Below, piece after piece: positions 3,273 to 3,803 of a stretch of 27,641 bases of DNA (the first letter of the stretch is position 1; every line of letters begins with the position of its first letter). Made by a program: the position numbers and the translations under genes. The DNA lies in assembly GCA_964584425.1 (NCBI GenBank), contig CAZPAA010000001.1, forward strand, positions 1 to 27,641. Direction: 5' to 3'. The notes beneath the pieces were generated by a model, which did no database searches, was not told the origin of the DNA, and was given only the letters and a program-made list of their open reading frames with translations. Source of the DNA: an uncultured Gammaproteobacteria bacterium (GTDB taxonomy: Bacteria; Pseudomonadota; Gammaproteobacteria; JABCZS01).

Positions 3273-3803
3273 ATGACGCAGCGTGGTGGGCGACGCGATG
3301 GCGCTGGGAGGCCTGCTGGTGCAGGGAAGTATGGTCTGGAAGCCACTAAAATCATTCGTGTGCCTATTTCTAAAATCAAAGATATTCAAATACTCTTGGC
3401 CAATGCGCAGCAATCAATGGCAATCCCGTTGTATGCCAGTAAAGTCGCTGCTGGATTTCCATCACCTGGTGATGATTATATTGAGGATTATTTAGATCTC
3501 AATGAAAAGCTGATTAAACATCCTGCCGCTACTTTTATTGTGGTGGCATCAGTCGATTCAATGACGGACGTAGGCATTCGTACCGGTGATTTATTGATCG
3601 TCGATAGAAGTGTAGACGCGACTCACGGAAAAATTGTCATCGCTGCAATCGACGGAGAATTAACTGTAAAACGTTTATCGCGAAAAAAAGACCGGGTGCA
3701 ATTATTGCCGGCAAATCCCGCTTATCAACCCATCGATATTACCGACACGCATGAATTAGTCATATGGGGCGTAGTCACCTTTGTTATCCATGTGCCGAGT
3801 TAA
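3273..3803 (+). CDS. umuD: UmuD-like S24 self-cleaving peptidase (Pol V accessory subunit) with N-terminal extension
   Basis: Cleavage-site motif VAAGFPSP, catalytic Ser (DSM) and Lys (GELTVKRL), C-terminal IWGVVT. ATG 3273 lies 5 nt after AGGAGG (GTG 3270 is an alternative). Confidence 0.92.
   Translation: MTQRGGRRDGAGRPAGAGKYGLEATKIIRVPISKIKDIQILLANAQQSMAIPLYASKVAAGFPSPGDDYIEDYLDLNEKLIKHPAATFIVVASVDSMTDVGIRTGDLLIVDRSVDATHGKIVIAAIDGELTVKRLSRKKDRVQLLPANPAYQPIDITDTHELVIWGVVTFVIHVPS

Follow-up and report, generated by a model that had tools for sequence, protein, structure and literature searches.

UmuDAb of Acinetobacter is the described protein that comes closest to the one reported here, a UmuD with a 60-residue N-terminal arm encoded in a 27.6-kb stretch of DNA from an uncultured gammaproteobacterium (27,641 nucleotides; hereafter the window). 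Purified UmuDAb shifts its operator in electrophoretic mobility shift assays (EMSA), binding as a dimer; deletion of its N-terminal domain (NTD) and mutations in the operator lead to derepression, and a non-cleavable mutant is unable to induce (PMC4807011, PMC11332147). The operator reads TTGA-N4-GTnAC-N4-TCAA, with AT-rich spacers and a GTnAC core that weighs more than either arm, and the EMSA probe was TCGTCAACTTGAAAATGTAACTTTTTCAAGTTACATT (PMC11332147). UmuDAb controls error-prone polymerase genes independently of LexA and represses all umuDC alleles of A. baumannii. Direct, specific DNA binding together with RecA-dependent derepression has been demonstrated for Acinetobacter UmuDAb only (PMC4807011, PMC11332147), and the protein has been called unique to or conserved in Acinetobacter, with operator features unique to the genus (PMC13010146, PMC11332147, PMC8565304).

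In E. coli UmuD the arm has 24 residues and does not serve in DNA binding, and LexA represses the gene at CTGT-N8-ACAG, whereas the window umuD combines a 60-residue arm with an operator of its own and lacks a LexA box; the S24 fold, the RecA-dependent cleavage motif and the umuDC operon are common to both. LexA is, as we propose for the window protein, a dimeric S24 repressor that undergoes RecA-stimulated self-cleavage between its DNA-binding and dimerisation parts, but its DNA-binding part is a winged helix-turn-helix (wHTH) of ~70 residues, which the window arm is not. Independent S24 peptidases with non-LexA DNA-binding domains and SOS-like control are found in the Bacteroidetes LexA-like proteins and in streptococcal HdiR (PMC8565304); unlike the window arm, those domains are of the phage-repressor helix-turn-helix (HTH) type. 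In the UmuD homologues of Bacteroidetes, the same study found no DNA-binding domain (PMC8565304).

We consider the window protein to be, with a probability of about 0.8, a short-linker member of the UmuDAb family, whose arm would repress its own umuDC operon at a palindrome, whose damage-induced self-cleavage would relieve that repression and whose core would become UmuD'.

A UmuD with the N-terminal module of UmuDAb

The gene at positions 3273–3803 on the forward strand, encoding 176 residues plus stop, is a umuD. Pfam Peptidase_S24 (PF00717) matches residues 52–168 of its product with an E value of 1.1e-32, and the product reaches 163.6 bits with the NCBIfam model of the autoproteolytic Pol V subunit (NF007621), above the cutoff of 110; residues 1–26 are not covered by any Pfam or NCBIfam model. 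In an alignment to the E. coli UmuD and UmuD' structures (8gmt, 1umu), G61 falls on residue 1 of UmuD', which places self-cleavage at A60/G61 (3450–3455), the counterpart of C24/G25 in E. coli UmuD and of A83/G84 in UmuDAb. The arm to be cut off is thus 60 residues long (3273–3452), 36 more than in E. coli UmuD; a preliminary description of the locus had recognised the longer arm and quoted its sequence correctly, but had put its length at roughly 55 residues. The UmuD'-equivalent core (residues 61–176; 3453–3800), with catalytic S96 (3558–3560) and K133 (3669–3671), aligns with E. coli UmuD' at ~55–60% identity, and A60, G61 and the S96/K133 dyad are invariant in an alignment of 106 relatives. 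Downstream lies umuC (3803–5071, forward strand), whose start overlaps the umuD stop (TAATG) and whose product is a Y-family polymerase with IMS, IMS_C and DUF4113 domains, scoring 417.9 bits with the NCBIfam UmuC model, slightly below the cutoff of 431. The S24 domain above a curated cutoff, the cleavage site with its Ser/Lys dyad and the operon with umuC all identify the gene as umuD, and this arm-bearing copy is the only umuD at the locus.

A database search returned Legionella proteins as the nearest relatives, and the 120 best relatives, which are 63–76% identical to the window protein, all have the arm. For comparison with UmuDAb, its 203-residue sequence was taken from Acinetobacter loci found by a genome search with the EMSA-probe core TTGAAAATGTAACTTTTTCAA, where the gene lies ~45 nt 3' of that sequence; a genome search with a primer-derived 18-mer aimed at A. 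baumannii umuDAb had given no Acinetobacter match. BLASTP aligned the two proteins over residues 3–170, arm included, at 45% identity (E 3e-45), and the sole large gap in the alignment was a linker insert of ~22 residues in UmuDAb. The window protein, which lacks this insert, is 27 residues shorter overall, while its Gly-rich loop is 4 residues longer than that of UmuDAb. The N-termini of the two, MPKKKEFEHGGARENAGRKAQFNEPTKVIRVPESQVNFIKNWLLNN in UmuDAb and QRGGRRDGAGRPAGAGKYGLEATKIIRVPISKIKDIQILLAN in the window protein, are one and the same module, with HGGARENAGRK...EPTKVIRVPESQVNFIKNWL in the former corresponding to RGGRRDGAGRP...EATKIIRVPISKIKDIQILL in the latter. A hidden Markov model (HMM) of the arm, built from Legionella-type relatives without any Acinetobacter sequence, gave 39.5 bits for residues 8–48 of UmuDAb and below 0 for the N-termini of E. 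coli LexA and UmuD.

Every experimentally mapped residue of UmuDAb has an identical counterpart in the window protein: the cleavage site (A83/G84 = A60/G61), the catalytic dyad (S119 = S96, K156 = K133), the dimer interface (N100 = N77, G124 = G101) and E24 (= E23), the position altered in the 'HTH1' mutant E24K of UmuDAb (PMC11332147). As judged from these comparisons, the window arm is the N-terminal module of UmuDAb, and the preliminary description's proposal that the arm uses a DNA-binding fold different from the HTH of UmuDAb does not hold. Of the features that mark the UmuDAb type, the window gene has a homologous NTD extending beyond a UmuD arm and an operator in its own promoter. UmuDAb also has a divergently encoded corepressor, ddrR, and none is linked to the window umuD; DdrR has been described as Acinetobacter-specific, and we take its gene to be a lineage feature rather than one that defines the family. 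The hosts differ as well, being Legionella-like for the window gene and Moraxellaceae for UmuDAb.

Within the arm, residues 1–44 constitute the conserved module, whereas residues 45–60 comprise the linker and the cleavage-site strand common to all UmuD/LexA proteins. The module, of ~40 residues, consists of GG-R-x2-AGR(P/K), an extended E-x-T-K-x-I-R-V-P segment and one amphipathic helix. Its first part is a Gly/Arg-rich segment (R4–G21, RGGRRDGAGRPAGAGKYG; 3282–3335, forward strand), predicted to be non-regular, which we infer to be a candidate DNA-contact element and in which G5, G6, R8, G12 and R13 are invariant. In the extended segment E23-x-T25-K-x-I-R29-V-P31 (3339–3365, forward strand), R29 and P31 are invariant and E23 and T25 nearly so; the segment is followed by the single amphipathic helix I32–N44 predicted by AlphaFold2 (3366–3404, forward strand). 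The seven invariant residues are the same in the alignment of 106 relatives and in a cross-phylum alignment of 44 arms, a pattern indicating that the arm is under strong selection.

AlphaFold2 models of the full protein, based on the 106-sequence alignment, have a mean pLDDT of 80, with a helix at residues 32–44, the cleavage-site strand at 51–59 and non-regular structure in residues 1–30 (block pLDDT 56–69); the arm alone, modelled from a diverse 53-sequence alignment, contains one helix at 32–45 with a pLDDT of ~95. The predictions are of monomers, and a dimeric beta-ribbon and contacts to DNA lie outside their reach. These monomer models contain neither a second helix, as a ribbon-helix-helix (RHH) would have, nor the three-helix bundle of a wHTH. 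Searches with an arm profile gave no match in Pfam at E ≤ 10, RHH families included, and nothing better than E 0.45 in the PDB.

The labels AT-hook-like and RHH-like, which the preliminary description had attached to the arm, capture real likenesses, namely a basic Gly-Arg-Pro segment paired with AT-rich spacers and a short extended stretch leading into a helix. They are sequence-pattern labels, unproven as folds, and the data support neither identity. The canonical R-G-R-P core of an AT-hook is absent, the arm reading G-A-G-R-P, and its Pro is not conserved, being replaced by Lys in UmuDAb and in about a quarter of arms. RHH proteins (Arc/MetJ/CopG) need two helices, whereas the arm has the single helix 32–44 before the cleavage-site strand, and stand-alone forms of the module end after this helix.

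A degenerate LexA-type wHTH would be a further reading of the arm. Such a fold was proposed for UmuDAb from I-TASSER and AlphaFold modelling, although Pfam and BLAST gave no HTH there (PMC4807011, PMC11332147), and the TIGR00498 lexA model does align with the window protein, from residue 27 on. Its score of 91.8 bits is, however, below the cutoff of 110.95 and derives from the S24 half, and the arm HMM fails to recognise the LexA NTD. Moreover, the module has only ~40 residues and one predicted helix, right after which its stand-alone versions end, and the extra residues of UmuDAb lie in the variable linker that is missing here. We hold a hidden wHTH to be very improbable; the same sub-cutoff score, the alignment from residue 27 only and the lack of a wHTH also led us to reject the protein as a LexA.

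The palindrome at the predicted umuDC promoter

Just 5' of umuD, where the preliminary description had noted a palindrome, lies a perfect 25-bp inverted repeat (3237–3261; 12+1+12, TTTGATTATTGT T ACAATAATCAAA), to which we refer as the operator. Its 23-bp core (3238–3260, TTGATTATTGTTACAATAATCAA) reads TTGA-N5-GTTAC-N5-TCAA and belongs to the same class as the UmuDAb operator, with TTGA/TCAA arms, AT-rich spacers, a GTnAC core and an overlap with the promoter of its own gene; the sole difference from the 21-bp site of UmuDAb is one extra base per spacer. The predicted sigma-70-like umuDC promoter (3209–3237, forward strand) consists of a -35 element TTGACT (3209–3214), a 17-nt spacer and a -10 element TACAGT (3232–3237), with 9 of 12 consensus positions matched in a consensus scan. 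It stands directly 5' of the operator, resembling the arrangement in relatives (TTTACA-17-TATCAT, then operator). The first base of the palindrome doubles as the last of the -10 hexamer, and one nucleotide separates its far end from the Shine-Dalgarno sequence GGAGG (3263–3267, forward strand), which is followed after 5 nt by the umuD start codon (ATG, 3273). No other site in the window fits the operator pattern of the family, even when three mismatches are allowed (0.10 expected), and no gammaproteobacterial LexA box (CTGT-N8-ACAG) is present upstream of umuD.

The promoter region also contains a direct repeat (ATAAAGTTTGACTAT / ATACAGTTTGATTAT, at 3202–3216 and 3231–3245, 29 nt apart), the first copy of which is half-site-like. 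We considered 3202–3216 as a third half-site and rejected it, because it falls on the -35 hexamer and relatives show no conservation of it.

The palindrome might instead act at the level of RNA. The gene 5' of umuD encodes a hybrid sensor kinase and points in the same direction, and in read-through transcripts from it a hairpin could hide the ribosome-binding site: the RNA fold of 3225–3285 has an energy of -18.9 kcal/mol (z = -3.5 versus shuffles) with the Shine-Dalgarno sequence paired, and the hairpin is extended by pairing of CUCCU (3226–3230) with AGGAG (3262–3266). Against this, good folding as RNA is expected of every perfect DNA palindrome, a transcript from the predicted promoter, whose -10 element ends at 3237, would start inside the left arm and lack the hairpin, and the distance from operator to Shine-Dalgarno sequence varies in relatives, often being 20–40 nt. 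We therefore judge an RNA-level main function improbable; the hairpin could be an add-on.

The conservation of arm and operator beyond the window was followed in a scan of one genome per species, which yielded 80 loci in Legionellaceae, Coxiellaceae, Arenicella, Hydrogenovibrio/Piscirickettsiaceae, Rickettsiales, Puniceispirillales, Azospirillaceae and Chloroflexota/Dehalococcoidia. In almost all of them the match starts at residue 1–5 and therefore includes the arm. Related palindromes, such as TTGATTAATGTACATTAATCAA, TTGAATAATGTACATTATTCTA and TTTGATTAGTTGTACACTAATCAAA, stand 5' of nearly all arm-bearing umuD genes. With a strict pattern, T[TA]GA-N4-6-GT-N0-2-AC-N4-6-TC[AT]A, a site was found within -150 to +10 of 50 of the 76 arm-bearing umuD genes, compared with three sites elsewhere in the same loci (466 kb, or 0.001 per 160 nt). 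Most of the genes without a strict site have degenerate versions, for example with a TG-AAA-CA core in the closest relatives of the window gene, and the sole armless UmuD of the locus set (L026) has no such site. By eye, the length of the arm loop is not linked to that of the operator (21, 22, 23 or 25 bp).

Together, arm and operator occur at umuD(C) genes in Legionellales, Coxiellaceae, Arenicella, methanotrophs, Alphaproteobacteria, Chloroflexota, cyanobacteria, Chlamydiae and on Legionella and Acinetobacter plasmids; the LexA boxes reported for Gamma- and Alphaproteobacteria, Chloroflexota, cyanobacteria and Chlamydiae differ from the arm-associated box (motif list in PMC8565304). The conjugative plasmid pLPL of L. 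pneumophila Lens and a mobilisable A. pittii plasmid each carry an arm-bearing umuD with box and umuC. In tblastn searches against plasmids the first ~20 residues were dropped, presumably through low-complexity masking, and the arm was present when the loci were read. L. pneumophila has been listed among pathogens without an SOS response (PMC3820712). In the 81 neighbourhoods compared, only umuD (81/81) and umuC (60/81, directly downstream) are conserved, with no third conserved gene and no separate regulator linked with the operator.

This distribution bears on a different account, in which an unlinked host regulator binds the palindrome, and the arm tethers Pol V, contacts RecA or the clamp, or serves as a degradation tag. 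There is a precedent in Acinetobacter, whose umuDC promoters are co-regulated by the TetR-type EppR, yet the sites of EppR are separate from the UmuDAb box and located upstream of it (PMC12242105). The box accompanies the arm across phyla and on plasmids with no second gene linked, purified UmuDAb alone shifts the equivalent box, and deletion of its NTD derepresses (PMC11332147, PMC4807011). Recognition of the palindrome by an unlinked protein is accordingly hard to credit, and repression by the arm itself is the reading we retain.

Two side observations concern individual arm-bearing loci. On pLPL, a gene annotated as SRAP (SOS response-associated peptidase) lies directly 5' of the arm-bearing umuD-umuC pair (L249:451-1119), and inspection by eye of the 150 nt ahead of that gene revealed no operator. 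A gammaproteobacterial metagenome-assembled genome (MAG) contains an arm-bearing umuD with an in-frame stop in the arm (GGK*EGAGRP) and further substitutions (L041:3001-3411), which is probably a pseudogene.

Operator sites at other genes and the module outside UmuD

An exact-pattern scan of 185,579 genomes with TTGAWWWWTGTACAWWWWTCAA returned at least 120 sites. Among the matches listed, at least 37 lie directly 5' of a umuD, extending the range of taxa to Methylococcales, Nitrosomonas, Methylophilaceae, Gloeobacterales, Pseudanabaenales, Chlamydiae and a bin labelled Myxococcales. At least eight further sites among the matches listed stand 5' of imuA (NCBIfam NF033429, 2.4e-51) followed by an imuB-like gene, 15–30 nt upstream of imuA (L111, L097, L128, L129, L151, L164, L173 and L181). 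For five of these eight imuA-imuB loci, the genome is an Arenicella-type MAG in which an arm-UmuD locus is present as well, and in one case the two, L111 and L073, are on a single 3.84-Mb contig; in L111 the coordinates are 5524–5545 for the operator, 4646–5545 for imuA and 3171–4700 for the imuB-like gene, with both genes on the reverse strand. The imuA-imuB pair hence appears to be a second mutagenesis cassette of the regulon.

The operator is also found 5' of armless, canonical umuD genes (L112 in Arenicella, L143 and L116), and in an alphaproteobacterial MAG one operator lies between divergent arm-bearing (197-residue) and armless (133-residue) umuD genes (L179, ~4149). In a Berkiella MAG it precedes a lone umuC (L090), in an alphaproteobacterial MAG a gene for an AlkB-type-dioxygenase-like protein, judged by eye (L153), and in the cyanobacteria Pseudanabaena and Tumidithrix a gene for a weakly Rad52-like protein (L081, L127, L146, L158 and L195; PF04098 E 0.002, below cutoff). 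The alkB-like and Rad52-like genes possibly belong to the regulon. On this sequence evidence, the operator in other genomes appears to define a regulon beyond autoregulation, the pattern reported for UmuDAb. Unlike that of LexA, the regulon seen for the arm-type box comprises translesion and repair cassettes (umuDC, imuAB, lone umuC) and not recA or lexA. The single-gene switch put forward in the preliminary description thus describes the window, but elsewhere the same operator serves further operons.

About two thirds of the listed exact-pattern sites are in AT-rich Firmicutes, Bacteroidota and Chryseobacterium beside unrelated genes, a radical-SAM/BATS enzyme gene being one, and were set aside as chance occurrences or lineage repeats. 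In Chryseobacterium, the pattern falls in a conserved intergenic palindrome between divergent genes for products of 548 and 261 residues (L125, L139, L160, L174, L186, L187 and L194); no S24 gene was found near these sites, and the palindrome is probably an unrelated, lineage-specific one.

The module also occurs apart from UmuD. A profile search of a 5.8-billion-protein collection gave 174 short proteins containing it, many of them complete products of 40–60 residues that end right after the helix (for example, MKKKKHGGARKGAGRKPKEPTVVMRIPISKVEAVKKLLKK); two stand-alone mini-proteins are labelled CopG/RHH by JGI. A HMMER search of 1.84 billion representatives (50% identity clusters) gave 3,222 clusters at E ≤ 1e-3 and 505 at E ≤ 1e-10. 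The architectures comprise the module alone, the module with a coiled coil, as in P0288, P0316 and P0261, where one arm is joined to a coiled coil, and the module with S24 through linkers of very different length; fusions to S24/UmuD are present in at least six phyla. P0254, a metagenomic protein of 425 residues, has six tandem GGARPGAGRKPK units (KRGGARPGAGRKPKV...) before an S24/UmuD-like domain, which suggests that the Gly/Arg segment itself is the repeated DNA-contact unit.

Several of the short forms were looked at individually. P0210, P0232 and ~100 others consist of a Lys-rich tail and the arm module only (HGGARKGAGRKPKEPTVVMRIPxSKVEAVKKLLKK). Two mini-protein genes lie in phage-like arrays (L248:2285-2407 and L251:3001-3135), one beside NinG, DUF551 and DUF5675 genes and the other beside a DUF5675 gene; the stand-alone mini-proteins are possibly small phage regulators.

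A broader reading would make the ~40-residue unit an autonomous, previously undescribed DNA-binding module that is not a LexA-like HTH and that drives a widespread LexA-independent switch over a small mutagenesis regulon. That regulon would include umuDC, imuAB, lone umuC and perhaps alkB- and rad52-like genes, in several lineages and possibly in LexA-less Legionella. We rate this reading at slightly less than an even chance.

The remaining genes of the window are ordinary chromosomal ones, encoding an NhaC-type antiporter, lipoyl synthase, an ABC importer, RNase T and an MscS-family channel protein. Two adjoining open reading frames stand apart: that at 6658–7569 encodes 303 residues with only a weak Roc/Ras-like GTPase match (E 1.3e-4, below cutoff), and that at 7581–9785 encodes 734 residues with no Pfam match. 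Their products may be Legionella effector-type proteins.

The proposed switch and its wider meaning

The homology of both protein and operator to UmuDAb makes a switch of self-repression and self-cleavage the best explanation of the locus. According to this model, the ~40-residue N-terminal module would turn the S24 dimer into a sequence-specific repressor, and the intact dimer on TTGA-N5-GTTAC-N5-TCAA would cover the expected transcription start and keep the mutagenic polymerase operon off. Upon DNA damage, RecA filaments on single-stranded DNA would stimulate self-cleavage at A60/G61 through S96 and K133. Once the arms were severed from the dimerisation core, affinity for the operator would collapse and umuDC would be transcribed; the same cut would yield a UmuD' fragment (residues 61–176) able to partner the co-translated UmuC as Pol V. 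For the window protein, DNA binding, RecA-dependent cleavage and derepression are carried over from the experiments on UmuDAb. The preliminary description had anticipated self-repression and self-cleavage to UmuD', and the correspondence of arm, operator and mapped residues with UmuDAb lends both good support by homology.

The part of the model that concerns UmuD' goes beyond UmuDAb, and here a purely regulatory protein, whose cleaved core would not serve as a Pol V subunit, has to be weighed. Such a role, repression only, has been reported for chromosomal UmuDAb of A. baumannii and A. baylyi: an E. coli umuD mutant was not complemented by UmuDAb, loss of UmuDAb did not lower induced mutagenesis, and the protein is regarded as regulatory only (PMC4807011). 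Arm-bearing and armless umuD genes can reside in one genome, as at L179 and in Arenicella, where L112 is found alongside arm-UmuD loci. In the window, by contrast, the arm-bearing gene is the only umuD beside umuC and overlaps it at the stop and start codons, umuC follows directly in 60 of the 81 loci, and the core exceeds the NCBIfam cutoff for the Pol V subunit and resembles E. coli UmuD' at the identity given above. Direct and translational coupling to umuC, which sets the window gene apart from UmuDAb, makes a dual role as regulator and Pol V subunit likely. From this operon structure the cleaved core is probably UmuD' too, and we regard a purely regulatory protein as unlikely.

Several findings weigh against the model. 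Besides the failure of UmuDAb to complement an E. coli umuD mutant, full repression by UmuDAb needs the corepressor DdrR, and no ddrR-like gene is linked to the window umuD. Among family members the half-site spacing ranges between 21 and 25 bp, which no structural model explains, and the arm-bearing loci L015 and L075 carry a different palindrome. Finally, the AlphaFold monomer models are only moderately confident for residues 1–20 (pLDDT 56–72).

The mechanism and the kind of protein are already known, as UmuDAb. In the literature searched, of which older subscription papers were not part, the breadth of the family, the ~40-residue module, its stand-alone forms and the likely role in LexA-less Legionella appear to be unreported, and no mention of a GAGRP motif together with UmuD was found. 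UmuDAb would be reframed as one member of a family that is much broader and that shares a conserved DNA-binding part of ~40 residues with no known fold. Research on UmuDAb gains from this a minimal, alignable structural target, with invariant residues and operator positions to mutate; if the module is indeed autonomous, the current view of how UmuDAb reads DNA would have to be revised. Many Legionella chromosomes and conjugative plasmids carry umuDC despite the described absence of an SOS response, and most likely a self-contained and portable cassette of repressor and operator keeps these operons silent and later induces them, independently of the LexA of the host.

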